Assembly (NCBI GenBank): GCA_030704665.1
Contig: JAUYID010000009.1
Span: 163 to 64,162, forward strand
Length of the DNA: 64,000 nt
Reading direction: 5' to 3'
Source: a bacterium
GTDB lineage: Bacteria; Patescibacteriota; Microgenomatia; Woykebacterales; RBG-16-39-9b
Shown: positions 6,607 to 60,085 of the stretch, one piece after another
Position numbering within the stretch: the first letter of the stretch is position 1
Layout of the letters: every line of letters begins with the position of its first letter
Made by a program: the position numbers and the translations under genes
Notes under the pieces: model-generated
The model's input: only the letters and a program-made list of their open reading frames with translations
Database searches by the model: none
What the model was told of the DNA's origin: nothing

Positions 6607-8445
6607 GTGAAATCTCTTGAAGGTCTCAATCCAACTCAAAAACAGGCGGTTACCTACGAGGGCTCGGCGGCTTTAGTGCTTTCCGGACCTGGCAGCGGCA
6701 AAACTCGTGTTATCACCCACCGCATTGCTTATTTGATCAATGAACTTGGCGTTTCCCCCGATGAGATACTGGCGGTAACTTTTACCAACAAAGCCGCCAA
6801 TGAAATGAAGGAGAGGCTCAAAAAACTGGTTGCTAACTCTCCAACCTGGATGGGTACTTTTCACAGTTTATCAAGTCGTATTCTTCGGAAAGACGGTTTT
6901 GCAATCGGAATCAACCCCAATTTTGTTATTTATGATGAAGGTGATAGTTTGGATTTGATCAAGGATTGCATGAAAGAACTGAATATTAACCCCAAAAATT
7001 TTTCGCCGGGTTCAATCAAAGCTAGCATTGAGAGTGCCAAAAACGAGCTGATTGGCCCAAACGAATACAAAACTTTAGCACGAGGTTATTTTCAAGAGGT
7101 AGTGGAGAAAGTTTATTCCGCTTACCAAAAAGCTTTAAAGAAAAGCCAGGCTTTGGATTTTAATGATTTGCTCATGCAAGTGGTCGTTCTTTTCGAAAAA
7201 GATCAGACGACTTTAGAAAAATATCAAAAACGTTTTAAATATGTTCTAGTAGATGAATACCAAGATACGAACCGGGCTCAATATCTTTTTTCCAAAATGA
7301 TTGCGGCTGCCTCGCGCTCTCTTTTTGTAGTTGGCGATGCTTCTCAGGCGATTTACGGCTGGCGCGGAGCTGACTACCGCAATATTCTTAACTTTGAAAA
7401 GGATTTCCCAGAGTCAAAAGTTTTTAACCTTGAGCAGAACTACCGTTCCACCAAAAGAATTCTTGACGCCGCCAAAGCTGTCATCGGTCAAAACCGTTCC
7501 CACCCAATTCTTGATCTTTGGACTGAAAATGATGAAGGCATACCTTTGGTGACCTATGAAGCGAAGAATGAGATTGAAGAGGCTGCCTTTGTGACAAGAA
7601 CAATTAACAAGTTGTTGGCTAGCAATCAAGGCTTTAATTTAAACAGTTTTGCTGTTCTCTACCGAACCAATGCTCAAAGCCGGGTCCTAGAGGAAGCTTT
7701 TTTGGCGGATGGGACACCTTACCTTTTGATCGGCGGGACACGTTTTTACGAGCGGAGGGAAATCAAAGACGTTCTCGCCTATCTAAAATTGGTTTACAAC
7801 CCTGCTGATACGGTTAGTTTTAAAAGAGCGGTCAACACCCCACCCCGAGGTATTGGCCCTGCTAGTCTGGGGGATCCAAAAAATCCTAAACTAAACAAAT
7901 TTCACGATTTGCTTGAGGAAATCAGAAACAAAGCCAAAAACCTAGAAACTATTGATCTTGTTGATTTGGTTCTTGCCCAAAGCGCCTATTTATCTTACCT
8001 TGATGATGGAACTCTGGAAGGTGTTTCTAGAATCGAAAACGTCAAAGAACTGCGTAGTGTGGCTACCCAATTTCCCGTTCTCGAAGATTTTCTAGAAAAT
8101 GTTGCCTTGGTCGAGCAAGAATATTTTCCTGACAAGAAAAACCCCGGCACTAAAGATAATGCCGTGACTTTGATGACCTTGCACTCAGCTAAAGGGCTCG
8201 AGTTTCCGGTTGTTTTCATGGTTGGTATGGAGGAAGGTATTTTTCCTCACTCCCGAGCCATGGAAGAGCACTCCGAGCTTGAAGAGGAGAGGCGCCTCTG
8301 CTACGTCGGTATTACTCGAGCCCAAAAGCAGCTCTATTTAACTTTCACTCAATCACGGCTCTATTTTGGGGCTCGAACTGCGGGAATAGTCTCCCGCTTC
8401 ATTCTCGATATTCCCAGCGAACTCGTTATTCCGATCCGGGTTTAG
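6607..8445 (+). CDS. UvrD/PcrA/Rep-family ATP-dependent DNA helicase
   Basis: Walker A GSGKTRVITHRIAYLI, DEYQDTN, VGD..QAIYGWRGA and other SF1 helicase motifs. Confidence 0.9.
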   Translation: MKSLEGLNPTQKQAVTYEGSAALVLSGPGSGKTRVITHRIAYLINELGVSPDEILAVTFTNKAANEMKERLKKLVANSPTWMGTFHSLSSRILRKDGFAIGINPNFVIYDEGDSLDLIKDCMKELNINPKNFSPGSIKASIESAKNELIGPNEYKTLARGYFQEVVEKVYSAYQKALKKSQALDFNDLLMQVVVLFEKDQTTLEKYQKRFKYVLVDEYQDTNRAQYLFSKMIAAASRSLFVVGDASQAIYGWRGADYRNILNFEKDFPESKVFNLEQNYRSTKRILDAAKAVIGQNRSHPILDLWTENDEGIPLVTYEAKNEIEEAAFVTRTINKLLASNQGFNLNSFAVLYRTNAQSRVLEEAFLADGTPYLLIGGTRFYERREIKDVLAYLKLVYNPADTVSFKRAVNTPPRGIGPASLGDPKNPKLNKFHDLLEEIRNKAKNLETIDLVDLVLAQSAYLSYLDDGTLEGVSRIENVKELRSVATQFPVLEDFLENVALVEQEYFPDKKNPGTKDNAVTLMTLHSAKGLEFPVVFMVGMEEGIFPHSRAMEEHSELEEERRLCYVGITRAQKQLYLTFTQSRLYFGARTAGIVSRFILDIPSELVIPIRV

Positions 8446-8505: not shown

Positions 8506-9267
8506 ATGTCTACCGTGAAAGCCCTGGCAGGAGCTGGTCGGTCCTTTTTTGCAGTCCTAAAAAACTTCTTTCTTCTTTTCTTTGCCCGCTTGTCCTATAA
8601 ACTAATCGGAGTTTTTCTTTTTATTTTTTTGTCCCTCCTTGTTTTTGCCGAGGGTATTTTCCTAGAAAAAACGTCAGTTGAAGCGGCGAGTTTTGGTTTG
8701 CGGCTCAGCCCAATTGAAGAAAGGTTCTCCGTGGTCAGCAAAGAACTTGGCTTTGAAGAAAAGGAAGTTCCAGACAACAAACTAGCAGTTGGGGAAAGGA
8801 AGGTGGTTCAGAGCGGCAAAAAAGGTCTTCTCAAGACTAAAACTCGTTTGCTGCTTTTTGCCGGTAAGGCTTTTACCAAAGATGTAGTGGAAACAAAAAT
8901 CATTCCCCCAACTGACCGAGTTGTTGCCTTCGGGACGAAAAAAATTTACCAACAAGGTAGGGTTGACGATCAGAATTTACACTATTGGGCCAAACTAACT
9001 ATGTTTTCCACCTCTTACGACAGTAATTGCCCTGGCTGCAACGAGAGCACGGCCTTGGGTCTGAAAACTGGCTTTGGGGTCGTCGCGGTGGATCCAAAAG
9101 TGATTCCTCTTGGTACCAAGGTCTTCATCCCCAACTACGGCTTTGCTGTTGCTGGCGATACCGGTGGCTCGATCAAGGGCAACAAAATTGACCTCGGTTT
9201 TGACGATGTCAAAAAAGGCTGGTGGTCAGCTCGCTACACTGATGTTTATTTACTAACTGAGCCTTAG
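8506..9267 (+). CDS. 3D-domain (MltA/RlpA-like) cell-wall-binding protein, with a G5-like region
   Basis: C-terminal VAVDPKVIPLGTKVFIP...GDTGGSIKGNKIDL is the 3D-domain signature. N-terminal TM helix. Confidence 0.65.
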   Translation: MSTVKALAGAGRSFFAVLKNFFLLFFARLSYKLIGVFLFIFLSLLVFAEGIFLEKTSVEAASFGLRLSPIEERFSVVSKELGFEEKEVPDNKLAVGERKVVQSGKKGLLKTKTRLLLFAGKAFTKDVVETKIIPPTDRVVAFGTKKIYQQGRVDDQNLHYWAKLTMFSTSYDSNCPGCNESTALGLKTGFGVVAVDPKVIPLGTKVFIPNYGFAVAGDTGGSIKGNKIDLGFDDVKKGWWSARYTDVYLLTEP

Positions 9268-9303: not shown

Positions 9304-10182
9304 GTGATGGACATTCACCAAAGTAGTCTTTGGGCCAAGTACATGGAGGCGCTGGGTTGGCAAACAGTCGATCTCAAACCGGGCTATGCTTACATCAGAA
9401 AACTTCCTCTCCTCGGCTCGATAGTAAAAATTCCCAAGGCCAGTTCAGAAATAGATTTGGTTCTAGTTAACGAGGTTTCGGAAAAGAACAAAGCAATTTT
9501 TACCAAAATCGAACCGGTTGGTGAAGTTGGTGATCAAAAGCTTTCGAACTCTTTAGTTAAAGCTGGTTTTGAAGCTGACAACTGGAGCCTGCAACCAACC
9601 AAAACTTTGGTTGTGGATTTAAAGGCCCCCGAAGAAGAAATCCTTACTCGTATGGAAAAGGATACACGCTACAGTATCCGTAGTGCTGAAAAGAAAGGGG
9701 TAAGGGTAGAGAAAGCAGACGACTTTGAAACCTTCTGGTCACTACACTCCCAAACGGCGAAGCGAGGTAAATTCTGGACGATTCGAGCCGACGTCGAAAA
9801 GCTCTGGAAAGTTTTTTCTGAGGCAAAACAAGGGCTGATATTAGTTGCTAGTTTTAATGAGCAACCACTCGCAACCTCAATGGTTCTTTTTCAAAATAAA
9901 AAAGCTTACTACTATCATGCCGGTTCCAGTACGCAGCGTAGAGACCTTTTTGCCCCTTATTTGGTAGTTTGGGAAAGTATCAAAGAGGCTAAGAAAAAAG
10001 GTTGTACGAGCTTGGACTTGATGGGAATAGTTGACCCAAGAATAAAAGCAACCCGGTCTTGGGCTGGTTTTTCTCATTTCAAAAAAGGCTTTGGAGGCGA
10101 AGAAAAAACTTATCTAGGCTCTTACGCCAAATTCTACAACCCAATCTTCAAACTCATTTTTAAGTTAAACAAATTTTTCTAA
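9304..10182 (+). CDS. FemAB-family peptidoglycan interpeptide-bridge peptidyltransferase
   Basis: Overall FemX/FemAB-like layout, including a YYYHAGSS-type motif. Confidence 0.55.
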   Translation: MMDIHQSSLWAKYMEALGWQTVDLKPGYAYIRKLPLLGSIVKIPKASSEIDLVLVNEVSEKNKAIFTKIEPVGEVGDQKLSNSLVKAGFEADNWSLQPTKTLVVDLKAPEEEILTRMEKDTRYSIRSAEKKGVRVEKADDFETFWSLHSQTAKRGKFWTIRADVEKLWKVFSEAKQGLILVASFNEQPLATSMVLFQNKKAYYYHAGSSTQRRDLFAPYLVVWESIKEAKKKGCTSLDLMGIVDPRIKATRSWAGFSHFKKGFGGEEKTYLGSYAKFYNPIFKLIFKLNKFF

Positions 10183-10185
10183 AAG

Positions 10186-10225
10186 AAATGAAAAACGCCA
10201 GGGCATTTGTGGTGCTCTGGCGTTT
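10186..10225. terminator. Bidirectional intrinsic terminator
   Basis: Stem AACGCCAG-(15 nt loop)-CTGGCGTT flanked by T-runs on both strands. It lies between the FemAB gene (+) and the island small-ORF unit (-). Confidence 0.6.
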
Positions 10226-10255
10226 TCGGTAGTGTCGGTTCGACGCGGGTGTGCT

Positions 10256-10522
10256 TTAGGCGACCGCTGCGGCCTCTACACAGTGATTCGCACAGCGCGA
10301 GGTCTGCTCGTCGATGGGGCCGCCGTGGTTGCCGGGGTCGACGATGACGCACTGGCGTACCTTCTTCGAGAGCACAGGGCTGGTCCGGGACCTGGGTGGT
10401 GTCTGGCGCCGGTCGCGGTGCGACTGGCAGATCACCTTGTCGGGGTTCTCGGGATCCTGGAACATCTGACCCTTGTGGTCATACTTGTCCTTGATCCAGC
10501 AGTCATTCAGGTTGGCCTCCAC
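10256..10522 (-). CDS. Small (88 aa) cysteine-containing protein with strongly GC3-biased codon usage; unknown function
   Basis: GTG start 6 nt downstream of a perfect AGGAGG Shine-Dalgarno. Third codon positions are almost all G/C, unlike the surrounding genes. Five Cys (..DCW.., ..ICQSH.., ..RQCVIV.., ..RCANHC..). Confidence 0.55.
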   Translation of the reverse strand: MEANLNDCWIKDKYDHKGQMFQDPENPDKVICQSHRDRRQTPPRSRTSPVLSKKVRQCVIVDPGNHGGPIDEQTSRCANHCVEAAAVA

Positions 10523-10952
10523 GTTGATCCTCCTGTGAATTTCCCTTTGGGTAAAGGGAATCCTACCGATTTTTGGCCTTGAAAGCCAAAGATCTGGTTT
10601 CTCATCAAGGTGTTAGCCCTTTTTTGAGACGAAAAACCAGATCTCTGACTGCCAAAATATTTACTTTTTCCTAACAATCACAAATTTGGCCCTTAAGAAC
10701 CGGGGGAGTTTTGTATTCACCACCTTTCCTTTAAGTTCTGCCCCGTAATTGCTTACGGGCCAAGTTTGTGATTACTAGTGCGAGAGGGGAGGAACGGTGT
10801 AGACGCTTGCGTCCCATTCGTCCTCCCCTGCGCGCCGGCTCGCTATTCAGTTGTCGCTTCTGAGTGTCACGTCCAGGTCATGGTCGTAACTGCTCCTTTC
10901 GTGAACTGAGACTTCGTGACCTTGCGGTCGCGTCGTCGCCGGTCGGTTGGGT
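10523..10952 (-). ncRNA. About 430-nt GC-rich, multi-hairpin leader/spacer RNA between two small ORFs (possible riboswitch or cis-regulatory RNA)
   Basis: Nested perfect stems: AATCACAAATTTGGCCC/GGGCCAAGTTTGTGATT enclosing CCCGTAAttgcTTACGGG; GGGGAGGA...TCCTCCCC; CCCTTTgggtAAAGGG; CTTTGGCcttgaaaGCCAAAG; AGATCTGGTTT...AAACCAGATCT. Confidence 0.4.
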
Positions 10953-11123
10953 CTAGTCGTTGGTGTCGTACTCCCTGTCGCCGCTGCCTTCAGTGGCGAA
11001 GAGGACACCACGGAGAACCCGGGAGGAAGGCACGGACCTGACGTTTTCCGTCGGCCCCATGAACTTCCACTGTGTGCGAACGATGCCATCCGCACCACGC
11101 TCCGCTTTCATCTGCTGCATCAT
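10953..11123 (-). CDS. Candidate small ORF (56 aa, below the ORF-track cutoff) with GC3-rich codons
   Basis: ATGATG start with AGGAGG 13 nt upstream (long spacer). Codon usage is coding-like and GC3-rich. No homolog recognised. Confidence 0.3.
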   Translation of the reverse strand: MMQQMKAERGADGIVRTQWKFMGPTENVRSVPSSRVLRGVLFATEGSGDREYDTND

Positions 11124-11321
11124 TTGGCGGGTTTAACCTCCTGAACTAAGATCCTAACCGCGTTTGTCTCAAATTGCTCTGGGGCAAACGCCATAAAATC
11201 TAGTCCTATAGTTCTATATTTTCAAAGAACAAAAAGATCTCGCTCTTCTTCCCTGTATTCAACTTTTCTTGAATTATGTGTCTGTTTTCGCAAAGCTCAA
11301 CATCCACGTAATTACTTTGTA

Positions 11322-11350
11322 ATTATAGCACAAGACAGACCTATAGTCAA
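11322..11350 (-). promoter_or_regulatory. Near-perfect sigma70 promoter (TTGACT-N17-TATAAT) reading leftward into the GC-rich island
   Basis: Minus-strand reads cTTGACT-ataggtctgtcttgtgc-TATAAT, read from the sequence. It lies just downstream of the helicase-nuclease stop. Confidence 0.6.
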
Positions 11351-11375
11351 GTTGTGGGCTTTTGTTTTGTTTTGG

Positions 11376-26679: not shown

Positions 26680-26754
26680 GGCGAGGTAGCCAAGTGGTAA
26701 GGCAAAGGTCTGCAAAACCTTTATACGCCGGTTCGAATCCGGTCCTCGCCTCCA
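26680..26754 (+). tRNA. tRNA-Cys (GCA), CCA encoded
   Basis: Cloverleaf read by eye: acceptor GGCGAGG/CCTCGCC, anticodon stem AAGGT/ACCTT with loop CTGCAAA (anticodon GCA), T-arm GCCGGTTCGAATCCGGT, 3-prime TCCA. Upstream TTGTGC-N17-TATAAT promoter. Confidence 0.8.
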
Positions 26755-27746: not shown

Positions 27747-28847
27747 TCAACTCTCCCACAACCTCAGCTGGTGACCTTCTGGGTAGATGGTTTCCAACTG
27801 TTTCTCAATTGTTTCTCCTTCCCCCAACTTTCCAATGATCTGGCGAGGTAGGTCCTCACCATAAATCTGTCTCGGCAAGGAAAGCAGCCCGGCTGCTCTG
27901 GCGACATCGCCTTTGGTCAAAGCAGTGTGAAGCGCTCCTCGCAGCCGACGTCTTGTCCGCTTCGGCAATCTCAACTCACCGTCGCGAATACTCACCCCCA
28001 AAACCTGGAGATTGGTATGGCCACTGATCTCCATAAGCTTGGTTTTGCGCTCGTTCAACTCGAAGGGAGTCTTCTCGTTGACGATTCGGCAGAGGGTGCG
28101 AACTTCAAGCTCAGTAATGGGACCATCTGCCGAGATCGCAATATTGTCCGCATAGCGGGTGTAGATCGCTCCCATCTTGTCAGCAAAGATCGCCAGACGC
28201 CGGTCCAGGTCACGGCAAACGAAATTGAAGAGAACCGGCGAGCTTGGTGCTCCCTGGGGCAAACGTGGCTCTAGTCCCAAACCTGGCACTAGAGTGGTGC
28301 AAAGGCGAGTGATCGCCAAAGCAAGCCACTTACCGATCTTGACTGCTCCAACCTCCTGCTCCAAGAGCTCTTCGAGCAACCACTTTCTGGTTACACTGCT
28401 GAAAGCGTCTTTGAGATCCAAGCTGAGCAGGTAGCGTGAGTGTCGGTGAGCCTCCACTGCGGTCAGCATTTTTCGATCCCGTACAAAACCGTGACACGCC
28501 CTGTGCACCGGCAGACCGGAGAGCAGGTTGCGTAGCATTCGTCGCTGCAGCCAGCGCAGCCGGGGGTCGGGAATCATCAGGATCCGAAAGTCCCCTGACC
28601 TCTTCCTGATCAGTCGCATGTCGTAGGACTCATCAATTCCACTTTCAACAATTGCCTGCAGTTGAGCCGGCCAAACGTGAAAGAGCAGGGCGAGGTAGCG
28701 GTAGGGGTTAAAGGACCGCCGAATCCGAAAAGGATCCAGCTGTGTCCATTCCCGCCAATTTCCAACCCCGTAAGAATCGTAAACGTCATCCTCAAGTTCG
28801 CCGAAACGAAACTCTTCTCCCGCCTCTTCCCAGGCAATATCAAGCAT
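27747..28847 (-). CDS. Retron-type reverse transcriptase (366 aa), GC-rich
   Basis: RT domains: RILMIPDP (domain 1), HRACHGFVRDRK (domain 2), LDLKDAFSSV (domain 3), LPQGAPSSPVLFN (domain 4, QGxxxSP, not the DGR variant), YTRYADNIAIS (domain 5; YADN rather than YADD), NERKTKLM (domain 7), and a VTG-like LQVLGVSI. AAGGAG SD 6 nt upstream of the ATG. Confidence 0.7.
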   Translation of the reverse strand: MLDIAWEEAGEEFRFGELEDDVYDSYGVGNWREWTQLDPFRIRRSFNPYRYLALLFHVWPAQLQAIVESGIDESYDMRLIRKRSGDFRILMIPDPRLRWLQRRMLRNLLSGLPVHRACHGFVRDRKMLTAVEAHRHSRYLLSLDLKDAFSSVTRKWLLEELLEQEVGAVKIGKWLALAITRLCTTLVPGLGLEPRLPQGAPSSPVLFNFVCRDLDRRLAIFADKMGAIYTRYADNIAISADGPITELEVRTLCRIVNEKTPFELNERKTKLMEISGHTNLQVLGVSIRDGELRLPKRTRRRLRGALHTALTKGDVARAAGLLSLPRQIYGEDLPRQIIGKLGEGETIEKQLETIYPEGHQLRLWES

Positions 28848-34152: not shown

Positions 34153-34154
34153 GT

Positions 34155-35075
34155 CTCTAAAAACGAGAAAGCCACCCTAGGTCAAGTCAACCTGTGAAAG
34201 GTCTTCCTGATCTGGGTGGCCCTCTCTCCAATCAGATGTAATTCGGTTTTGTCGACATTACAGGCCGGTCTTTCCCAAGTTAGGTCTGATCAGCCTTGTC
34301 GGCGCCGGGACGGTCGCTTAGAGCTTCTTCAGGGTGAGGTCACTTCGCATGAAGTTGTCCTTTCCATGCGCTACTCGCTCTACCTGAGCGGATCCGGCAG
34401 TGGAGAAACACTCCACTTACTAGTCACTCTCGTTTCCAAGCCAACGTCTCGAAGTTAAAGCGTCCTTTGATCGGTTACGATGAGCCGGCGGCCCTCGACA
34501 CCGTAGCGGACGCAGACTCACCCGGTGTTCTCGCCCTTCGCGAGGCGCGACGACGACGCGCAGATTTCGTCAAACAACGTCACCAGAGCGAGGGCCGGGC
34601 CGTTCTTGTTGTGGAACATCTTCACTTCCTTTCTGTTCCACTCGTGTCGGCACACCGTGTGTCGATCACACCTTTCTTCCCAGAAAAGTGCCGCGATTAT
34701 AGCGCAGTCGATCTAGGTCTTGGTTAGACCTCCATGACGTTTGTCATGGGCCGACACCTGTTTCGCTCGTCAGTACACTACGTAGGAGCGGACCAGGATA
34801 AATGAAGCCCAGGTTTTAGTCGACATGCCTCGGCTCTACGAAAGGGTTGGTAGTGGGGTTCGTCACGTGTCCGGTTTGAGCATATGCTCAGAGTCCTTTC
34901 TACTGGAGACGTTGCCACGACCCTACTACGCTGCCTAATGGTGCTGTTCTTTATCGTCGTATGACGCCGACTTGAGGTGAACATCCTCACAATTTTCCCA
35001 GAAGCCATAGCACATGGTCTTATACGGGTAAGAGTCGGTTGAACACAGCACGCTCGAACAGCGGAGTATTCTCTC
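34155..35075 (-). ncRNA. Candidate ~0.9 kb GC-rich non-coding RNA (no credible ORF in six frames)
   Basis: Perfect consensus promoter immediately upstream on the minus strand. Many perfect hairpins/palindromes (TGAGCATATGCTCA, CATGACgtttGTCATG, GGTCTtggttAGACC). Terminal stem GCCACCC...GGGTGGC followed by a T-run at the far end. Confidence 0.4.
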
Positions 35076-35088
35076 TTTAATCGCCGTT

Positions 35089-35117
35089 ATTATAGTTAAG
35101 ACTTGCTTGCTTGTCAA
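35089..35117 (-). promoter_or_regulatory. Perfect consensus sigma70 promoter TTGACA-N17-TATAAT directed leftward into the GC-rich ORF-less island
   Basis: Minus strand reads TTGACA-agcaagcaagtcttaac-TATAAT (plus 35112-35117 tgtcaa; 35089-35094 attata). Overlaps the divergent tsaD promoter region. Confidence 0.6.
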
Positions 35118-36776: not shown

Positions 36777-39272
36777 TTGAGCTTGAACAAAGCTCACGCT
36801 ATAATAAGCCGAATGGAAAAGGTTTACGAACACCAAGAAGTGGAAAAGCGTTGGTACGACTTCTGGGAAAAGAAAGGTTACTTTCAACCCAGAGAAAGCA
36901 AAAAACACTTTTCAATAATCTTGCCCCCACCCAATGCCAACGGCAGACTGCACATTGGGCATGCCATGTATGTCATTGAAGATATTATGGTTCGTTACCA
37001 CCGTCTGCTCGGCGACTCAACTCTTTGGCTGCCCGGAGCTGATCACGCCGGGATTCTGACTCAAGTGGTTTACGAGCGCGAACTAGAAAAGAGCGGTAAA
37101 ACGCGCCAGGATTTGGGTCGAGAGGAATTCTTCAAACAAACTTACGCTTTTTCTCAGGAAAACAAAAAGCAGATGTATGAACAACTGCGGGCCATGGGTT
37201 TCTCTCTGGACTGGTCACGTGAAAAATTCACCTTGGATCCTGAAATAACCAAAGTTGTCTACCAAACTTTCAAAGCTCTCTACGATGACGGCCTGATTTA
37301 CCGCGGGACGCGGATGATCAACTGGTGTCCGCGCTGTGCCACGGTTCTTTCGGATCTCGAAGTGGTTCACCAAGAAAAAGAAAGTAACCTTTGGTTTATC
37401 CGCTATCCAATTAAGAATTCCAAAGAATTTGTCACTGTTGCTACCACTCGACCCGAAACGATGCTCGGCGACACTGCGGTGGCGGTACATCCGCAGGACA
37501 AGCGCTATAAAGATTTAGTCGGGAAAACGGCCATTTTACCACTCATGAACCGAGAAATCCTGATCATCGCTGATTCCTATGTCAACTCAGAGTTTGGGAC
37601 CGGTGCTGTCAAGATCACCCCAGCGCACGACCCCAATGACTACGAAATTGGCCAAAAACACAACTTAAGTCAGATCCAAGTCGTTGGCTTGGATGACAAA
37701 ATGACTGATTTATCGGGTAGTTATACTGGTCTTGATAAATATGCAGCCCGCAAACAAGTCGTTGCTGATTTGGAAAAACTCAGTTTAATTGAAAAAACCG
37801 ATCGCCTAAAAAACAACGTCGGGGTTTGTGAGCGCTGTGCTACCGTGGTGGAACCACAAGTTTCGCTGCAATGGTTTGTCGCCGTCAACAAAACCGGTAA
37901 AAGCGGGAAGAATCTGGCCAAGGACGCTCTAGCAGCTGTTAAATCTAAAAAAATTAAGATCATTCCAGCTCGTTTTGAAAAAATTTATTACAACTGGATG
38001 GAAAACATTCATGATTGGTGTATTAGCCGGCAACTGTGGTGGGGCCACCAAATTCCGGTTTGGTATTGTGGTGAGCCGAATCAAAAAAGAATGGGCTTTG
38101 CCGAAAGCATTGTTTCTCAGGTTTTAGAAAGTAAAACCAAAACTTACCGTCTACGTGATCACAGTTTTCAAGTCGGTGACAAGGTAGTTTTCGAAAATAG
38201 TGGTACGAAGAGAGTCTTTGGTCACGGAAGGATTAACGAAGTAACAAGAACAACAGTCGGTGAGCTGCCTTTAGCCGACAAAGCTCATGGCGCCGTTTAC
38301 CAGAACGTCGACGAGCTTATCGCCGCTTTCAAAAAACACAACCCAGACAAAGAAGTAACTTCCGAAACAGCCGCCTTTATTTATGGTTATGAATTCATCC
38401 CAGCAGAAAAACTGGCCAAAATTTGTGGTGAATTAATTGTTTCGTCTGAAAAACCAAAGCAATGTCCTGTTTGTGGCAACGAAAAGTTGACCCAGGATCC
38501 TGATACCCTGGACACCTGGTTTTCCTCAGGCCAGTGGCCGTTTACGACTCTTGGCTATGGACAAAAAGATGACTCTGACTTTAAAAATTTCTATCCAACC
38601 AGTGTCATGGAGACTGGCTATGACATTTTGTTCTTCTGGGTGGCGCGGATGATCATGCTTGGTTTGTACGTGACTGAAGATGTTCCTTTTCAGACAGTTT
38701 ACCTACACGGCCTGGTTCGGGATGAAAGGGGCCAAAAGATGAGTAAAAGCAAGAATAACGCCATTGATCCGCTGACCGTAGCTGAACAGTACGGTGCTGA
38801 CGCAGTGAGAATGGCCTTAGTTTTTGGAACTGGTCCTGGAAACGATGCCAACCTGGGTGAAGCTAAAATCAAAGGCATGCGCAACTTTACCAACAAACTC
38901 TGGAATATTGCCCGCTATATCATTGATATGGCCCCGGAAAAGACTGCTGAGCGTGTTGAAGAAACTGAAGATGACAAATGGATTCTAGCCGAGCTAGACA
39001 AAACTAAAACTAGTGTTACCAAGGCTCTTGATGACTATAGGTTTTCTCAGGCGGCGGAAGAGCTCTACGACTTCGTTTGGCGCCGACTGGCCGATAGGTA
39101 TATTGAAAGTACTAAGTCTCGTCGTAGTGAAGCACAGGCGGTCCTAGAGAAGGTTCTTGAGGACTCACTTCGCCTCCTCCACCCCTTCATGCCTTTCATA
39201 ACTGAGGAGATATGGCAACGCTTGCCCAACAAAAAAGGCACCTCGATAATGGTGTCCGAATGGCCAGTCTAA
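36777..39272 (+). CDS. valS: Valyl-tRNA synthetase (with a lineage-specific zinc-ribbon insertion)
   Basis: PPPNANGRLHIGHAMY (HIGH), KMSKSKNN (KMSKS), DTWFSSGQWPF. About 140-aa insertion between WYCGEP and DTLDTWF containing CPVCGNEKL. Confidence 0.9.
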   Translation: MSLNKAHAIISRMEKVYEHQEVEKRWYDFWEKKGYFQPRESKKHFSIILPPPNANGRLHIGHAMYVIEDIMVRYHRLLGDSTLWLPGADHAGILTQVVYERELEKSGKTRQDLGREEFFKQTYAFSQENKKQMYEQLRAMGFSLDWSREKFTLDPEITKVVYQTFKALYDDGLIYRGTRMINWCPRCATVLSDLEVVHQEKESNLWFIRYPIKNSKEFVTVATTRPETMLGDTAVAVHPQDKRYKDLVGKTAILPLMNREILIIADSYVNSEFGTGAVKITPAHDPNDYEIGQKHNLSQIQVVGLDDKMTDLSGSYTGLDKYAARKQVVADLEKLSLIEKTDRLKNNVGVCERCATVVEPQVSLQWFVAVNKTGKSGKNLAKDALAAVKSKKIKIIPARFEKIYYNWMENIHDWCISRQLWWGHQIPVWYCGEPNQKRMGFAESIVSQVLESKTKTYRLRDHSFQVGDKVVFENSGTKRVFGHGRINEVTRTTVGELPLADKAHGAVYQNVDELIAAFKKHNPDKEVTSETAAFIYGYEFIPAEKLAKICGELIVSSEKPKQCPVCGNEKLTQDPDTLDTWFSSGQWPFTTLGYGQKDDSDFKNFYPTSVMETGYDILFFWVARMIMLGLYVTEDVPFQTVYLHGLVRDERGQKMSKSKNNAIDPLTVAEQYGADAVRMALVFGTGPGNDANLGEAKIKGMRNFTNKLWNIARYIIDMAPEKTAERVEETEDDKWILAELDKTKTSVTKALDDYRFSQAAEELYDFVWRRLADRYIESTKSRRSEAQAVLEKVLEDSLRLLHPFMPFITEEIWQRLPNKKGTSIMVSEWPV

Positions 39273-39430
39273 TGTCATTCTCAGTTTGACTGAGAATCTA
39301 GATTCTCGATTTCTCGAGAATGACCCCTACTTTAGGCATGAAAAAACGGCCGGCCTGCGAAATGCACATCGTGCCTCGCAGTTGTGGATTTAACCACAGC
39401 CGACCGTCTTCGCTCTTCTCCAATTTCCGA

Positions 39431-39931
39431 TCAGGACACCGACGCTGGTTCACCAGTCTCGATAGCGCCAGGTTCTACCAGACCGTCTCCCTCGAGGCGA
39501 TGAACCACCAAGCCAAAGACGATAACCCGATCCAGCTCCATAGCAGCCAGACGCGCCGCCTCCGCGACTCTAATAGTCGGCTCGAGACCTAAACCCAGAA
39601 GTAACCTATCCGCAACTTCAACGAGCAGATCGACACTCCCAGTCCCAGACCAGGGGTAACCCTTGAAGATCGCCACTGCTTCCTTGAGCTCACTACGAAC
39701 AATGGCAGGGTGGTTCTGGAAGAACATCATCCGGAAGGTCAGCTCAACCAGAAACTGGTTGATCACTGTGGCCCTGCGCAGCATCAGACTCAGCTTGTCG
39801 AACTGCTGCTCGTCGAGCTGGCCAGCGAGATGGGCGTTGATCAGGGTTGGCCCCACCCACTCTGGAAGGAGCTTACCGCTGATCACTCGGTAAACCAGGT
39901 CTTGCATCTGCCGAAAGTTGTCTGTAATCAC
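39431..39931 (-). CDS. Island gene 4: 166-aa all-alpha protein, unknown function (GTG start)
   Basis: GTG start preceded by AAGGAG 8 nt upstream. GC-rich codon usage. No recognisable motif. Confidence 0.5.
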   Translation of the reverse strand: MITDNFRQMQDLVYRVISGKLLPEWVGPTLINAHLAGQLDEQQFDKLSLMLRRATVINQFLVELTFRMMFFQNHPAIVRSELKEAVAIFKGYPWSGTGSVDLLVEVADRLLLGLGLEPTIRVAEAARLAAMELDRVIVFGLVVHRLEGDGLVEPGAIETGEPASVS

Positions 39932-39996
39932 AGTACGTTCTCCTTCTAGCTTTCCTCAAGTCTCCAGCTTCCACCAGGCTTGTCGTCTGAGTGCGA

Positions 39997-40389
39997 CTAA
40001 TAGTCGAGTGGGTTGCACTCGTAGCAGTCGCGCTCGTCGCCAGTGTGGATTTTCCCCGCAGCGATGTGAAATGCGTCTCGGTCATCGTCCTCGACCGGAT
40101 ACATCTCATCGAACACATCGTCGTCGCTGACGCCGTGCTCGATCGACTGAAGCTCAGCGATAATCGCTCTCCTGACGGACGGTGGTGTATCGGAGGCCGT
40201 CAGCCTGGCAGTGTTGTAGTCCCCTTCTTCAGGAACCCTACCACCAGTAATCTGATCCAGCCGCTCCCAGTAAGTTGCCAAAACGTTTCCCCTCTCACTC
40301 TCATGCGAGACTCTGGCTTTCCGCCAGGCTACTCGGTGTAGGTGACGATTGCAGTCAGGAAGATTGCTCGCCCGCCGCTTTGGAGCCAC
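39997..40389 (-). CDS. Island gene 3: acidic small protein (95-130 aa depending on start; a TTG at 40281 avoids overlap), unknown function
   Basis: C-terminal acidic stretch DDDVFDEMYPVEDDDRD and CYECNPLDY. Start is ambiguous: GTG at 40389 overlaps gene 2 by 61 nt, while TTG at 40281 follows the conserved intergenic motif. Confidence 0.4.
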   Translation of the reverse strand: MAPKRRASNLPDCNRHLHRVAWRKARVSHESERGNVLATYWERLDQITGGRVPEEGDYNTARLTASDTPPSVRRAIIAELQSIEHGVSDDDVFDEMYPVEDDDRDAFHIAAGKIHTGDERDCYECNPLDY

Positions 40390-40547
40390 TGAACAGAGGC
40401 CCCCGGATGCTCAGCAACGAAGTTGTTCACTTCGTCCTGCAGCGTCTTCAAACGCTCTTCGTACTGACCCGCGTAACCATAGGTCGGACGACTAAACACT
40501 TGGAACATTTCCACCTTTCCCTTCTGGCTGTCGGTCTGAGTGACCAT
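40329..40547 (-). CDS. Island gene 2: 72-aa soluble protein with a DUF4177-like pattern (weak resemblance)
   Basis: ATG with GGAGGA 4 nt upstream. Pattern: beta-strand (VEMFQVF), GY.G, helix, GG, terminal strand (AIFLTAIVTY). Confidence 0.5.
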   Translation of the reverse strand: MVTQTDSQKGKVEMFQVFSRPTYGYAGQYEERLKTLQDEVNNFVAEHPGASVQWLQSGGRAIFLTAIVTYTE

Positions 40548-40581
40548 TCTTTCCTCCGCGTGTCTCTGGCTTCACGCCAGG

Positions 40582-40812
40582 CTAATCGGCAAAGATTCGG
40601 TCCGCTCGCACCAGGAATAGCACAAGGGCTGCGAAGCCCAGTGCATAGGTACCAGCGGCGAGCGTGACGATCCGATCCTTGTTGCCTATCGTGTCTGAAG
40701 GCCAGCCCAGAAGGCCAAAGACGGCGTTCACCACAAGGGCCAGTCCGGCTACGACGACTATGAGCATGACTGTAGACACGTACTTCTGCAAGAAGTTGCT
40801 GGTGATTACCAT
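40582..40812 (-). CDS. Island gene 1: 76-aa two-TM membrane protein
   Basis: ATG start. Two hydrophobic helices (VMLIVVVAGLALVVNAVFGLL and LAAGTYALGFAALVLFLV). First gene after the consensus promoter. Confidence 0.5.
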   Translation of the reverse strand: MVITSNFLQKYVSTVMLIVVVAGLALVVNAVFGLLGWPSDTIGNKDRIVTLAAGTYALGFAALVLFLVRADRIFAD

Positions 40813-41239
40813 TGCCTGGCCTCTCGTCCTCTGACCTTGCGATCAAGCTACTGCTTGCCGTTGCCGCGTCGCCTTCGGTCCTGAGTTACAAGTCGCTCGA
40901 GGCGTGCTTGCACCTTGGGCGTGGCGTTCCTGCGTATCTGCGCATCCGAACGCGCCGCCGGTTTCTTGGACCGAGAAAACACAAGTCTCATAGGTTTGCC
41001 GAAATCCTTTTGATTTCAAAGAGCTGGGTGGATACAAGAGCGCAAAGCTTGTGCTCCTGCTTAAGCAAACCAACCTTGCGGCTGACTTTCTTAAGAAAAT
41101 CAAAAAAGGCACCTGGTAACTGGTATCGATCTGTCCAAGACTTCAGGGCGGTTTTCGCAATGACAGTTCTACTTAAACATTCAATTCCAGTTACTAGATG
41201 CCTTATCTAAGTAACTACTATTCAGTTTTTAATAAAAGG

Positions 41240-41268
41240 ATTATAACAAAGTGTAAAAGAAAAGTCAA
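41240..41268 (-). promoter_or_regulatory. Near-perfect sigma70 promoter TTGACT-N17-TATAAT reading leftward into the four-gene GC-rich island
   Basis: Minus strand reads TTGACT-tttcttttacactttgt-TATAAT. The -35 overlaps the rplY terminator hairpin GTAACTAC...GTAGTTgAC. Confidence 0.6.
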
Positions 41269-41284
41269 CTACTATGGGTCGTAG

Positions 41285-41983
41285 TTACTCTTTGGGGGTT
41301 TCTTCAGTACTCTCAGTGGCTTTCTCTTCTCCACCTTCGGCTGCTTCACCTTCTTCACCTTCACCTTTTTCGGCAATAGCCTCAACCGCTTCTGGGGAGA
41401 CCACTTCCTCTTCAACTTCTTCTTTCATTTCCGCGGTTTGGACGGAAACAATCACTTCTTCAGGATCGTTTTGAATAGCGACTTTTTCTTTGTCGGCTTT
41501 CAAATCCTTGACGTGAATTGCTTGTCCCACCTCTTCAAGTTTATCCACCGAAACTTCAAAATTGTGGGGAATGTCAGCTGGCAAACACTCAACTTCAACT
41601 TCGTTCAGGGTTTGTAGAATCAAACCGACACCGGATTTTTCCGCTGGTGACTCACCTGCCAAAACAACTGGAACGTTGGTGACAATTTTTTCCTTGAGGT
41701 TCACTTCGTGGAAGTCAATGTGAATAACCGAGTCACTCTTGGGATCACGCTGAACACGGTGAACCAGTACTGGGTGTGTCTTTGAACCAACCGCAAGTTC
41801 GACTAGGCCGGTTTCCCCGACCTGACGGAAAGTTTTCTGAAATTCCTTTTTATCAACCTGAAGAGCCTCAGACTTAATTTCTTTACCAAAGAGGTTGGCT
41901 GGAATAATTCCGCTAGCACGCAGCCTCTTTACTTTTTTACCCAGATCGGTTCTTTCTTGAACGGTTAGTTTTATTTTATCCAT
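41285..41983 (-). CDS. rplY: 50S ribosomal protein L25/general stress protein Ctc, with a long acidic C-terminal extension
   Basis: MDKIKLTVQERTDLGKKVKRLRASGIIPANLFGK. C-terminal EEVEEEVV...GEGEEGE tail. Confidence 0.8.
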   Translation of the reverse strand: MDKIKLTVQERTDLGKKVKRLRASGIIPANLFGKEIKSEALQVDKKEFQKTFRQVGETGLVELAVGSKTHPVLVHRVQRDPKSDSVIHIDFHEVNLKEKIVTNVPVVLAGESPAEKSGVGLILQTLNEVEVECLPADIPHNFEVSVDKLEEVGQAIHVKDLKADKEKVAIQNDPEEVIVSVQTAEMKEEVEEEVVSPEAVEAIAEKGEGEEGEAAEGGEEKATESTEETPKE

Positions 41984-42059
41984 AGAAGAGTACTTATTAT
42001 CAACTATAAAAGGAGATCTTGCTAGAAGCAATTATATCCGGCTTGTCAATTGGTTGGTT

Positions 42060-56418: not shown

Positions 56419-56710
56419 TTGAGTAGCCCTTTTACAATTAAAGAGTTAGAAAATTGTTCACCTCAAAGTGCGCGAGAGCCTTGGGGGAAAGATGGAAGCT
56501 GAGCTTAGAAAATGGCCTCTAGTAGCGAAAAAAGAGCTAAACTAGTTGTAATAGGCAGCCTAGAGCTTGCTTTTATCTTCCCCCCAATGCGCTGTTGCTT
56601 TTATGCACTCGCTTGGGGATCAACTTCACTTACACGTCTGGCTTTCAGGCTAGTACGTTTTGATCCACAACAACGAGTTGCATAGCAACAAGAGCAGCAC
56701 TGGGAGGTGC

Positions 56711-59700
56711 AAAATGACAGACGGTATCGATGACGCAACTCCTGATGAGGGACTAACACCTCAGGAAGAAGCGATTCTCCGTGGAAAGGAAGCTGCTTGG
56801 CTGACTGACTACGGCTATCTAGCTGGCGAGGGGACCCCCTACGCCAACGACAATCAGCATCTGCTTCACCTCGGGTGGAGGGACAGCAGTAATAACTACG
56901 ATCGAGTCATGAGTATGGAAATGATTCAGCGTCGGTACCACTCGAAGCTGGTCTTTTTCGCAGTAACTCGAGAAGCCAAGTTCTCAGTACAGCAGCAGTT
57001 TCGTACTACTGAAGGGGGAATCCAACGCCCCTTGTATGTCTCGTCCGAGTGGTATGTCTGGGAGTACAAGAAAACTGACGGACCCACACATGACGAAAAG
57101 GGTTGGCCTCTCAAAAGAGAAAGCAGACGGGTTCCAGCACAGGCAACGGATCAAGGGGCTTTTAGGGAGCCTAGTACTACTTTGGACATTCAGAAGGCCG
57201 ATAGGGACCGTGATGGCACTCCGATAGTCGCCACCGGTTCTGTATTCATGGGGTGGAAGTACAACTTCCAGCCTGTGGGCGACGCCGACATTCGGGCCGA
57301 AGACAGCAAGGTCTACGCACGAGTTCAGAGGATCTGGAACAATACCGGCAAGCTACCGAGTGTACTTCAGACGGGTGAGGAGAAGACGATTAAGAACGAC
57401 CTTCTCCAGCTTCTGAAGGACCTTAAAGAATTGACCGGTGAGGACTGGAGTACCAAGGGCAATCCCAACGAGGCCAATCGCCGTGTCATTATGGAGCGGC
57501 GCTGGATACTCGGCCGGAACCACCCCGAGACTTACCAACAGCATCTTCGGGTGCTGGGTGGCAAGATCCCAGAGGAGTACTTCTTCGCTGAGTACAACGA
57601 GCTCCGCCGGCAGAAGGCCCGCAATATGGACCGCCCGCTGGAAGAGCAGGATCGTGTTCGCGATCCCTACTCGGCCAGCCTGAAACACCTGCTCGACAAG
57701 CGGGTCGACGGACGGATCGTTTACGCGGGAACTCCAGAGTATGATGAGGCTCGCGGTAGACTGATTCCCGAGATCAGGATCACTCTGCTCAATGACCACG
57801 GCCTCTCAACCTTGGCCGAGTACAATATCACGCAGAAGTACCTGATCAACGGCTACACTTTCGAAAGAACCTGGGAGTGGCAGCAGAACATGCGGGCGAA
57901 GGCTCTTCAACGAGCTAGCCTCAGGGTTAAGCTGCCGAAGAGTCACCCACTCCACTTGTCCCCGAACGCAGTGGGGGATTTTGTGGACGATTATCCTGAA
58001 GGTCGAACCTTCTGGATAACTCCATCCTGCAGCGACGCTTTTGTACGTTCCTTGGCAAATCAGATTCGCACCGATTACCGGGAAGAGCTTCCGGAAGGTG
58101 TCGAATTCACTCGGGACGAAGGCGGTCGTGAAGTGATGCGTCGGCTCCCGTCATTGCGAAACCAAGGCGGGGAAGAGGAGAAGCAGTTCTCCGATGAGTT
58201 GAACGCAGATATCCTCACCGCCACGTCAATAACGACCCTGGCGGATAAGAAGTGCCGTAACGTCAACGCCTTCGCGCATATTGTGAAGAGCTGTCGTATC
58301 ACTCGGGACGGTCAAGCTGACTTTACCGAGGCGAAAGAGGTACGTCTCACGATCGAGGAGGATCGTGATAAGCAGAGGCGTAATGAAGATCAAGTACAAA
58401 CTCGAACTCTAACCATGGCTTATGATGCTGGTCAGCTCGACCAGAATCGCCCTGGCCAGGCACGAGATCGAGGAATTGGTGGTCCGCGCAGCGCAGAGCC
58501 GTGGATTGCTGATCCAAAGTTCCGCCTCAATTGGTGTCTCTTGTACAAGCAGAGGCGAGACCCGAGAACAGGCAAGATTCTGCGCAACGATCTAGGCAAC
58601 CCTCTTTGGGAGCCACGCTACAGCTCAGAGGATGGGGCTCGTGCCTCGGTAATGATACAGAGAGCACTTGCGAACCCAGCCACAGATGTTGTGGTACCGA
58701 CTCAAGAAGAGGCCGTCAAGAAGGCCTGGAAGAAGCGCTGCGACGAGAACCTCTTCGTGGCCCAGTTCGTTCAGGATCCCTACTACGACCGGCGGCCCGC
58801 GGACACGGCCATCGCTACCAACCTGATCGGTCGCAAGACCAGTATCACGGGTGGGGTGAAGCTAAATATTACGGGGGCCACCAAGGCTGCCAACGGCAAG
58901 GGCTACACCTTCGACGATCTTCTCAAGGATCTGCCGGGGCTACGTAACTACTTGCCGAACGACTACGATCAGAACGGAGCCTTCGATGGCAAGCTCGATG
59001 AGGAATTTTACATCCTTCAACTCGAGCTCATGTTCTACATCGACCCTCGCTATGTTGCCAAGATTCACAAGGGTTCGTGGAGTTGGTATCTCTTCCACGA
59101 GCAGAACATGCGTGTCACACGCATCAGCGAGGACCTGCGTGCCACCCGAGCCAATTTCCTGCGTCAGCAGGACGTTGCCTGGGGGATGTGGGCTGGACAA
59201 TCGCCGAAGGGGATGGTGCTACACTGTGACGAGACGCTTAGCACCGACATCCACAACGGGATTTTCAACCCGTTGCCGGACTTGCAGAAGGCTGCCAACG
59301 GCTACCCCGGCATTCACATGCCGAACGTAATCATGGTGGCTCCAGATGGGCAGAAGTGGAACCTTCAGGACCGGCCCAGGAAAGACTTCGAAGATGCTTA
59401 CACACCGCTCAACTGGAGAGCTCACGAGCATATCGGCAGAGGAGAGGCAGACGACACCTTCATTGGTTACGCGACTGCTTTCTCGACCAGTACCTTCACC
59501 GGACTAGCTCACTCTGGCCTGGGGCGGCGTCTGGGTGATACAGAGGCGGAAACCTATCTCGTTCGTGCTCAGGGTAGGCAGTCTTGGGTGAATGGAGTAG
59601 TTCCGGCTCTCAAGTCCCACGCTGAGGCAGTCTCAGCCTTTGGGACCGGTGACCTGAACGAGAATGATTGGATGAGGTCTGCTCTTGATAGCGGTAAGGT

Positions 59701-60085
59701 GACTGGCGAGTGGTTTAAGTCCACAGGACAGTTGTTCTGGAAGGGCGAGAAGGTTCAGGAGGTCAAGATCCTCCACACTGCCGAATACATCAAGGACCAC
59801 TCCTACCCAGACAATCCTCGCGATGCTCACGAGCTGGCGAAGATGATCTGGGAACGCCGTATTGACGGGAAAGGTTACCGCTATGGTTGGGAAGAGGTTG
59901 AGGCGGAAGCAATACGGATTCTCTTTGGTGGTCAGCGACCGGCTCAGTTGAACCCGCATGGCCGCTGGAGGCTGAACGCGATCTACTGGGCTTACCGAAC
60001 TACCCGCCATTTCCGTGCGGTCTCACTGACCAGCGAGGAGGAGAGGAGTCACGAACGGCCGGTAATCCATTTAGCAGCGGCTTAG
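56711..60085 (+). CDS. Large (1124 aa) GC-rich orphan protein of no recognisable family, inserted inside the T4SS locus
   Basis: ATG with GGGAGGTG 4 nt upstream (the ORF-track start at 56660 is 17 codons earlier, without an RBS). Consistent GC-rich codon usage over 3.4 kb. No P-loop, HExxH, TM or signal peptide seen. Trp/Tyr/Arg/Asp-rich. Confidence 0.6.
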   Translation, partial: KMTDGIDDATPDEGLTPQEEAILRGKEAAWLTDYGYLAGEGTPYANDNQHLLHLGWRDSSNNYDRVMSMEMIQRRYHSKLVFFAVTREAKFSVQQQFRTTEGGIQRPLYVSSEWYVWEYKKTDGPTHDEKGWPLKRESRRVPAQATDQGAFREPSTTLDIQKADRDRDGTPIVATGSVFMGWKYNFQPVGDADIRAEDSKVYARVQRIWNNTGKLPSVLQTGEEKTIKNDLLQLLKDLKELTGEDWSTKGNPNEANRRVIMERRWILGRNHPETYQQHLRVLGGKIPEEYFFAEYNELRRQKARNMDRPLEEQDRVRDPYSASLKHLLDKRVDGRIVYAGTPEYDEARGRLIPEIRITLLNDHGLSTLAEYNITQKYLINGYTFERTWEWQQNMRAKALQRASLRVKLPKSHPLHLSPNAVGDFVDDYPEGRTFWITPSCSDAFVRSLANQIRTDYREELPEGVEFTRDEGGREVMRRLPSLRNQGGEEEKQFSDELNADILTATSITTLADKKCRNVNAFAHIVKSCRITRDGQADFTEAKEVRLTIEEDRDKQRRNEDQVQTRTLTMAYDAGQLDQNRPGQARDRGIGGPRSAEPWIADPKFRLNWCLLYKQRRDPRTGKILRNDLGNPLWEPRYSSEDGARASVMIQRALANPATDVVVPTQEEAVKKAWKKRCDENLFVAQFVQDPYYDRRPADTAIATNLIGRKTSITGGVKLNITGATKAANGKGYTFDDLLKDLPGLRNYLPNDYDQNGAFDGKLDEEFYILQLELMFYIDPRYVAKIHKGSWSWYLFHEQNMRVTRISEDLRATRANFLRQQDVAWGMWAGQSPKGMVLHCDETLSTDIHNGIFNPLPDLQKAANGYPGIHMPNVIMVAPDGQKWNLQDRPRKDFEDAYTPLNWRAHEHIGRGEADDTFIGYATAFSTSTFTGLAHSGLGRRLGDTEAETYLVRAQGRQSWVNGVVPALKSHAEAVSAFGTGDLNENDWMRSALDSGKVTGEWFKSTGQLFWKGEKVQEVKILHTAEYIKDHSYPDNPRDAHELAKMIWERRIDGKGYRYGWEEVEAEAIRILFGGQRPAQLNPHGRWRLNAIYWAYRTTRHFRAVSLTSEEERSHERPVIHLAAA

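Follow-up and report, generated by a model that had tools for sequence, protein, structure and literature searches.

What is the small GC-rich block of genes that lies between two core translation genes, valS and rplY, in the AT-rich genome of a patescibacterium of the Woykebacterales? The names attached to rplY homologs likewise point to a host near Candidatus Woykebacteria. The block is found in a stretch of 64,000 nucleotides of contig JAUYID010000009.1 (assembly GCA_030704665.1), referred to here as the window, which also contains dnaA, dnaN and recF. An initial annotation had described it as an operon of four small genes, here named g1 to g4, driven by its own perfect consensus promoter and forming a candidate system with the look of a toxin-antitoxin (TA), abortive-infection or defence islet. 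Our analysis leads to a different reading, to which we assign a probability of roughly 70%: the region is a strain-variable accessory islet at an insertion hotspot between rplY and valS, it consists of genes able to occur independently of one another, and these would be expressed, if at all, by read-through from the promoter of a neighbouring small RNA or from rplY. The features of the locus are given below in order of position, lengths of proteins and open reading frames (ORFs) being in amino acids.

36777 to 39272, plus strand: valS, flanking core gene, convergent with rplY
39274 to 39324: nested palindrome GTCATTCTC...GAGAATGAC, one base from the valS stop codon
39341 to 39408, minus strand: strong intrinsic terminator of the island, closing the operon
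39431 to 39931, minus strand: g4, 166 aa, GTG start
39997 to 40281, minus strand: g3, 94 aa from a TTG start, with a 130-aa reading also possible
40311 to 40329, minus strand: second copy of the junction motif, TAG followed by CUGGC-GGAAA-GCCAG and AG
40329 to 40547, minus strand: g2, 72 aa, ATG start
40564 to 40582, minus strand: first copy of the junction motif, stop codon TAG followed by a CUGGC-GUGAA-GCCAG hairpin and AG, then GGAGG and the start of g2
40582 to 40812, minus strand: g1, 76 aa, ATG start, two hydrophobic segments
40848 to 40991, minus strand: g0, a possible arginine-rich ORF of 47 aa in the island leader, uncertain and with a weak Shine-Dalgarno site
41099 to 41238, minus strand: conserved small RNA or long hairpin terminator, with a 5' part rich in A and U that leads into a hairpin of about 30 bp and ends in a U-run
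41268 to 41240, minus strand: resident sigma-70-type promoter TTGACT-N17-TATAAT, matching at 11 of 12 positions and carrying a TG extension
41285 to 42031, minus strand: rplY (L25/Ctc), flanking core gene

The description of a foreign, GC-rich block of four small minus-strand genes with strong Shine-Dalgarno sites is confirmed. GC content, taken in 400-nt segments, is 0.53-0.58 between positions 39200 and 40999 and 0.42-0.48 in the flanks on both sides, giving an island of about 1.7 kb whose composition is foreign to the host background of 42-48% GC. The four ORFs are tightly spaced, were also called by separate gene-finding software on a Logan contig that has identical junctions, and are annotated in GenBank as hypothetical proteins Q8P13_00365-00380, on a metagenome-assembled contig of 938 kb. 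Their GC content at the three codon positions, about 0.6, 0.38 and 0.67, is coding-like, and the overlapping alternative frames are without this pattern: the combination of a low value at the second position (0.37-0.41) and a high value at the third (GC3, 0.65-0.68) is confined to the four proposed frames. GC3 of the flanking host genes amounts to 0.37-0.49, and the values for g1 to g4 are those of real genes out of a gene pool of about 56% GC. A GGAGG-type Shine-Dalgarno site stands 5-8 nt upstream of each of the four starts. The statement that none of the proteins can be assigned to a known family also stands, as scans of g0 to g4 against Pfam (E ≤ 1), PHROGs (E < 0.1), PADLOC-DB 2.0 (E ≤ 1) and NCBIfam returned no family. 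At the nucleotide level, no part of the island matched an Rfam family, and BLAST comparison of the island with phage and plasmid records gave no similarity. Each of g1 to g4 forms a singleton cluster at 90% identity among about 15 billion proteins.

The surroundings of the island are conserved in related genomes, the loci of which are designated here by L numbers. The gene order epimerase-up133-rplY, facing the convergent pair valS-AAA_33, is kept in about 30 related contigs. The stop codons of rplY and valS are 0-52 nt apart in 17 relatives, the gap measures about 27 nt in L155-L158, and in a close relative it is 172 nt, which bears out the earlier proposal of an insertion into a conserved neighbourhood. 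Further relatives carry cargo of other kinds at the same site, listed here with the identity of their rplY; the hairpin mentioned is the one that corresponds to positions 41099-41238 of the window.

L087-L089, rplY 62%: pair of RHH_1 and PIN_3 genes, plus a tandem pseudo-copy of the valS 3' end
L111, rplY 55%: 4.3 kb with a YafQ-type toxin pair and GC-rich orphans
L128, rplY 66%: HicB/HicA before the hairpin and three orphans after it
L159-L161, rplY 65%: TetR and RHH/PIN ahead of the hairpin; beyond it, orphans and a weak YoeB-type pair
L126 (complete genome OZ246414.1), rplY 69%: a 62-aa ORF and a 69-aa ORF with two transmembrane segments
L116, rplY 70%: other GC-rich ORFs
P0004 contig, rplY 82%: two genes, of 69 and 103 aa

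The RHH, PIN and YafQ proteins among this cargo were detected by the same hidden Markov model (HMM) tools that fail on g0 to g4. Judging from these comparisons, the rplY-valS site is a lineage-specific hotspot with differing cargo. A scan of genome contigs based on valS reached distant phyla only, with a best match of 62% identity, valS being too conserved. Two observations on the relatives may be added. The pseudo-copy in L087 (positions 8655-8726) repeats the last 23 or so codons of valS in tandem, outside the functional stop codon and abutting the PIN toxin gene, and is evidence that the valS 3' end was rearranged in the past. In L155 (4135-4528) and L156 (4021-4447) the rplY-valS site is empty, yet a DUF4258/DUF2283 pair lies between the epimerase gene and up133, which suggests that there are several small hotspots in this conserved origin-proximal region.

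The promoter that had been described as perfect is indeed close to consensus, and equivalents are present in L082, L116, L087, L122, L124, L125 and L126; its ownership by the island, on the other hand, does not hold, as it is kept in a relative that has no island. In L122 and L123 (rplY 81% identical) the 172-nt gap between rplY and valS contains the promoter and the hairpin only, and the U-run of the hairpin overlaps the valS stop codon. In the window, the hairpin spans about 110 nt directly downstream of the -10 box and is followed by U6 (-48 kcal/mol, z = -6.3). With a covariance model built from eight copies, exactly one hairpin per locus was found in the window and 16 further loci (12 distinct sequences), so that the window holds no second copy; the scores were 82-153 bits on the rplY-sense strand versus 26-47 bits on the opposite strand. 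In an alignment of ten sequences 97% of the cells are paired and six pairs show compensatory changes, and several invariant G-U pairs are feasible on the rplY-sense strand only. A search of Rfam with the hairpin gave no match. Since promoter and hairpin occur in a relative without the island, they are resident features of the host and not part of the island, and appear to form a small-RNA gene and shared terminator. The hairpin probably terminates rplY as well, and the element may represent an undescribed small RNA of the candidate phyla radiation (CPR) that doubles as a bidirectional terminator.

The island starts immediately after the U-run of this hairpin, and no further promoter-like sites were found inside it. 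Because the hairpin separates promoter and island, transcription of the genes from this promoter would need read-through of a terminator, and the claim that the promoter drives the island is not sustained. Nor does the promoter overlap the rplY terminator, as had been stated; it precedes the hairpin. Insertions in relatives are found on both sides of the hairpin. Three contigs of close relatives, from separate assemblies, end no more than 75 nt from the rplY stop codon, at or just before the hairpin (L084/L120 at position 7776, L121 at 2474); such ends would be the expected outcome of strain heterogeneity at the site.

Whether the four genes belong together can be judged from the company that their homologs keep. 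An exhaustive HMMER search of 1.84 billion representative proteins identified a sole homolog of g4, P0002 (146 aa, 36% identity, E = 6e-12); a word-index search with g4 alone returned nothing except g4. The gene for P0002 lies at the rplY-valS site of L082 (rplY 83-85% identical), in a GC-rich island of 2.3 kb that comprises five genes. It is the only one in common with the window: the other four encode proteins of 182, 138, 96 and 73 aa with no similarity to g1, g2 or g3. Homologs of g2 are found in two more loci. The island of L124 consists only of an arginine-rich ORF of 45 aa, the g2 homolog, a terminator and a palindrome, and that of L125 of an arginine-rich ORF, the g2 homolog, a junction motif and the first part of at least one more gene, truncated by the end of the contig. 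g0 and g2 stand together in three loci, with g1 interposed between them in the window; pairings among g1 to g4 are otherwise not kept across loci, and none of the fetched relatives carries the full set. A single word-index query with g1 to g4 joined gave nothing, not even g1 to g4 themselves, and is no evidence of absence. For the two genes with homologs the picture elsewhere is thus largely one of scattering and not of co-localisation, and the proposal that the four genes act as one system is not borne out, as g2 (L124, L125) and g4 (L082) are found without the other genes.

The proteins themselves differ in how much can be said about them. g2 is a soluble beta-alpha-beta-beta protein with a conserved core from residue 14, and its homologs share 77-80% identity in L125 and 56-60% in L124. 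The ratio of nonsynonymous to synonymous substitution rates (dN/dS) against L125 is 0.16, which argues that g2 is a real and constrained gene under purifying selection. Its true start may be GTG 40514 or ATG 40508, that is codon 12 or 14. The DUF4177-like label that g2 had received has to be dropped, since there is no Pfam match at E ≤ 1 (PF13783 is absent); the fold is a generic beta-alpha-beta-beta arrangement, and searches of PDB sequences with a g2 profile and with g3 returned noise only. g4 is predicted by AlphaFold2 to be all-helical with six helices, in a poor model (mean predicted local distance difference test score, pLDDT, of 59). g1 is hydrophobic (grand average of hydropathy 1.16); no homologs were present among the fetched relative loci, g1 not having been searched singly in the large protein databases. 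g3 is acidic (isoelectric point 4.2), with a C-terminal CxxC and the ending CYECNPLDY; it had no homologs in the fetched relative loci or by tblastn against phage and plasmid records, and like g1 was not searched singly in the large protein databases. Cysteine-rich, zinc-ribbon-like orphans also occur as hotspot cargo in L116 (1096-1404) and L128 (8822-9145), with 102 and 107 aa and 36% identity to each other, and L128 encodes in addition an acidic protein of 145 aa with CPECPKCEIC...CRECD (9346-9783); these orphans loosely recall g3 with its C-terminal CYEC. The possible product of g0, the first ORF downstream of the strong hairpin terminator, is strongly basic (isoelectric point 12, 15 lysines and arginines in 47 residues). 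L124 and L125 have arginine-rich ORFs of 45-48 aa at the same position, with good Shine-Dalgarno sites; across the three loci these ORFs are only 21-38% identical.

What the related islands share to a larger extent is non-coding. The junctions between genes follow a common layout of stop codon, CUGGC-(GNRA or five-nt loop)-GCCAG, AG, GGAGG and start codon. The motif TAGCCTGGCG-loop-GCCAGAG has two exact copies in the island and none elsewhere in the 64 kb, with 0.09 expected, and degenerate versions stand at the g0/g1 and g3/g4 junctions. Between unrelated genes it is seen again in L124, in L125 and, with two copies, in L082. In these hairpins a stem of 5 bp carries a loop of GAAA, GCAA, GUGAA or GGAAA, the whole element measuring 14-21 nt. 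Half of such a hairpin (GCCAGAAGG...) lies within the annotated N-terminus of g2, at the position of the junction in L124 and after the full copy behind g1. This arrangement suggests that g1 was inserted by recombination at a junction element, and also that g2 may really begin at codon 12 or 14.

The ends of the islands are shared in a similar way. Three islands with different genes, those of the window, L082 and L124, have the same sequence, CAGGCCGGCCGTTTTTTCATG, in the 3' half of the terminator, and the terminator regions of the window and L082 are 78% identical over 82 nt. The flanks of these two loci align up to 41103 and 39410, so the variable part spans approximately 39411-41102. The nested palindrome after the valS stop codon is present as first described. 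At its core is a perfect 16-bp palindrome, GAGAATCTAGATTCTC, with four ATTCTC/GAGAAT units arranged in alternation around it; in L124 the architecture is the same with all four arms changed in concert (ATTCTGG/CCAGAAT), and the element is absent from L082. The island is flanked by the two copies of an imperfect direct repeat of 27 nt (39230-39256 and 41101-41127), which are 81% identical and share an exact core of 14 nt, CAAAAAAGGCACCT; one copy lies in the 3' coding end of valS, and the other is formed by the 3' arm and U-run of the hairpin. This repeat could be an insertion scar, microhomology or chance. It was considered as an att-like scar; in the empty site of L122, hairpin end and valS are not similar in the same way, and because of this the repeat may be chance or microhomology. 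When viral contigs were scanned for the terminator, the hairpin core and the junction motif, there were either chance matches in coding DNA or no matches at all.

According to the reading that we favour, the cargo would have been inserted between the U-run of the resident promoter/hairpin element and the valS stop codon, as a promoterless operon of four or, counting the uncertain g0, five small genes, most of which have a short stem-loop of GNRA type and a strong Shine-Dalgarno site in front of them. Transcripts begun at the small-RNA promoter or at rplY would run through the hairpin terminator into the genes. Related islets would gain and lose genes and exchange them with one another, the probable route being recombination at the junction hairpins and the conserved ends. 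The gene products would work on their own or a few together, in accessory or conflict-type roles (a membrane-active peptide, small binders), and not as a four-part machine. The TA modules found at the site in relatives, together with a retron-type reverse transcriptase in another GC-rich patch of the window, are all that points to a conflict or envelope-related role.

Several points weigh against this reading. Neither a recombinase or transposase nor a clear target duplication was found at the island; integrase and transposase genes are likewise missing within about 7 kb, where the neighbours carry housekeeping Pfam domains only. The hairpin resembles an efficient terminator, and the operon may therefore be silent or use a promoter that we did not recognise. 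Because g1 and g3 have no homologs, their codon composition and Shine-Dalgarno sites are all that speaks for them as genes. The idea of modularity draws on few genomes, as the junction motif occurs in four loci and each shared gene in two or three. Finally, the suggested function is read from location.

How do other explanations compare? If g1 to g4 formed one new TA, abortive-infection or defence system, with g1 as effector and g2 to g4 as soluble partners or regulators, one would point to the compact, co-directional arrangement with short spacers, to the presence of a membrane peptide next to an acidic protein and to the real TA modules at the hotspot in relatives. The last of these made the initial comparison with TA and defence islets a fair guess from location, but it finds no support in the proteins, none of which matches a toxin, antitoxin or defence HMM in PADLOC, Pfam or NCBIfam. 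Moreover, the occurrence of g2 and g4 elsewhere without the other three genes argues against a joint function, and the searches made showed no recurrence of the set, given the singleton clusters, the one distant homolog of g4 and the lack of the set in the fetched relatives; we regard such a system as distinctly unlikely. Even less can be said for the view that the ORFs, in part or altogether, are chance open frames in a GC-rich insert and not genes. Overlapping ORFs of 116-132 aa do exist in other frames of the region, and g1 and g3 lack detected homologs, but the codon-position pattern limited to the four proposed frames, the Shine-Dalgarno site before each start, the homologs of g2 and g4 in the same frame and the dN/dS of g2 make this very improbable.

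The island might instead be what decay has left of a larger mobile element (prophage, satellite or integrative element targeting the valS 3' end), with surviving moron-like genes that are drifting. The foreign composition, the direct repeat flanking the island and the tandem pseudo-copy of the valS 3' end beside the real one in L087 would all fit. We nevertheless consider a remnant improbable: the island proteins include no integrase or capsid and have no PHROG match, the comparisons with phage and plasmid records and viral contigs yielded no similarity, g2 is under purifying selection, and the ends of the island are better conserved than its contents, which points to a maintained structure and not to decay. 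A last proposal, compatible with the accessory islet, is that junction hairpins and g0 form a regulatory device of RNA and protein of the lambda N/boxB kind, in which g0 would bind the 5-bp GNRA-like hairpins and thereby cause terminator read-through or control translation or stability of each cistron. The strongly basic g0 directly behind a strong terminator, the arginine-rich ORFs at the equivalent position in L124 and L125 and the loop sequences of the hairpins led to this idea. Against it stand L082, where the hairpins are present and the arginine-rich ORF is absent, the weak Shine-Dalgarno site of g0 in the window, the low identity of the ORFs between loci and the fact that the hairpins are equally explicable as passive mRNA stabilisers or as insulators exposing the Shine-Dalgarno site; to the device as a whole, and to g0 as its hairpin-binding part, we attach little credence.

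Chromosomal insertion hotspots and defence islets between core genes are known from bacterial pan-genomes. The present locus resembles them in its fixed site between syntenic core genes, which is empty in many relatives, in its strain-specific cargo of atypical composition and in the TA modules among the cargo. It differs in being tiny (1.7 kb), in the lack of a detected recombinase, in its anchor, a conserved small-RNA hairpin, in its almost all-orphan cargo and in that related islets share non-coding ends and a junction motif. For uncultured archaea, too, there is a description of variable hotspots that hold HicAB modules (PMC13385816). The type II TA modules at the site in relatives (HicAB, RHH-PIN, YafQ/YoeB-type) have the position, the small size of the genes and the operon organisation in common with the islet; they have, however, the AT-rich composition of the host and not the high GC content of this cargo, g0 to g4 match no toxin or antitoxin family, and there is no conserved two-gene pairing here, except possibly that of g0 and g2.

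In layout, the islet also recalls integron arrays and clusters of attC sites lacking integron-integrases (CALINs), with unrelated, promoterless small ORFs that lie close to a promoter and vary between relatives, and with a structured repeat at the junctions. However, the neighbouring 7 kb or so do not encode IntI, the junction hairpin measures 14-21 nt versus 57-141 nt for attC, and a search of both strands for RYYYAAC...GTTRRRY attC core pairs found none. Both defining tests, IntI and attC, thus failed, and the resemblance is one of layout only. A fuller reading in this direction is that the rplY-valS site hosts a gene-cassette platform that is independent of a recombinase or served in trans, in which small orphan ORFs are exchanged between strains next to a promoter/hairpin anchor, bounded by a junction of about 20 nt made of GNRA hairpin and Shine-Dalgarno site and closed by a conserved terminator, with neither IntI nor attC and possibly with an arginine-rich peptide reading the hairpins; we regard this as unlikely, both in its general form and in full.

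The likeness to boxB and N, which we take to be one of form, lies in an arginine-rich peptide encoded just downstream of a terminator and 5-bp GNRA-like hairpins on the same transcript; here, unlike in lambda, the hairpins stand at every gene junction and not at a nut site, and the islet of L082 has no peptide. Intercistronic stabiliser hairpins, repetitive extragenic palindromic (REP)-like elements and phage start-associated sequences similarly place a short conserved stem-loop directly upstream of the Shine-Dalgarno site, but the junction motif is confined to this islet family and is not a genome-wide repeat. By kind, then, the locus is a chromosomal hotspot islet; what is unusual is the small-RNA hairpin that anchors it, the junction hairpin and terminator that it shares with related islets, and the all-orphan GC-rich cargo in an AT-rich CPR genome.

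The window contains further stretches of unusual composition or content. The reverse transcriptase mentioned above is encoded at 27747-28847 on the minus strand (366 aa, 54% GC, RVT_1 E = 1e-22), with tRNA-Cys (26680-26754) and a gene for an M23 peptidase beside it. In NCBIfam it matches the retron St85 family best, at E = 4e-44 but under the curated cutoff; no repeats of the kind associated with diversity-generating retroelements were found near it, and it is possibly a retron-type defence gene, so that at least one other GC-rich patch would also encode a gene of accessory type. Between the NYN-domain gene and tsaD lies a GC-rich gap of about 950 nt (34153-35100, GC 0.50-0.57) with no convincing ORF and no Rfam match. 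The same gap in L122 and L124 measures about 1.1 kb at GC 0.50-0.53 and is patchily conserved (166 nt at 74%); the stretch could represent either a structured RNA or a variable islet. At 10200-11375 there is one more GC-rich patch (about 0.52), in which all ORFs are overlapping and unconvincing, among them one of 116 aa without Pfam match. An ORF of 1141 aa at 56660-60085 on the plus strand (55% GC, GC3 0.64) is a compositionally foreign orphan with no match in Pfam or NCBIfam. The flanking valS itself carries an insertion of about 110 aa (residues ~434-552; 38076-38432, plus strand) that is absent from most relatives (valS of 693-737 aa), present in L122 (819 aa as called) and weakly similar to the ASCH domain (E = 5.6e-4, just under the Pfam cutoff).

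The genomes of CPR bacteria, or Patescibacteria, are tiny and consist mostly of genes of unknown role, and how they acquire and shuffle accessory genes is poorly understood. The locus analysed here corrects one expectation, in that the block is probably no new defence system of four proteins and does not own the near-perfect promoter. In exchange, it offers a concrete example that can be aligned across relatives: a hotspot beside a conserved small RNA, with a cargo of either TA pairs or GC-rich orphan mini-genes. Should exchange or regulation prove to depend on the junction hairpins, small accessory genes would be organised here in a new way; otherwise, the islets would still provide a useful catalogue of fast-evolving small proteins, of which g2 is clearly under selection.

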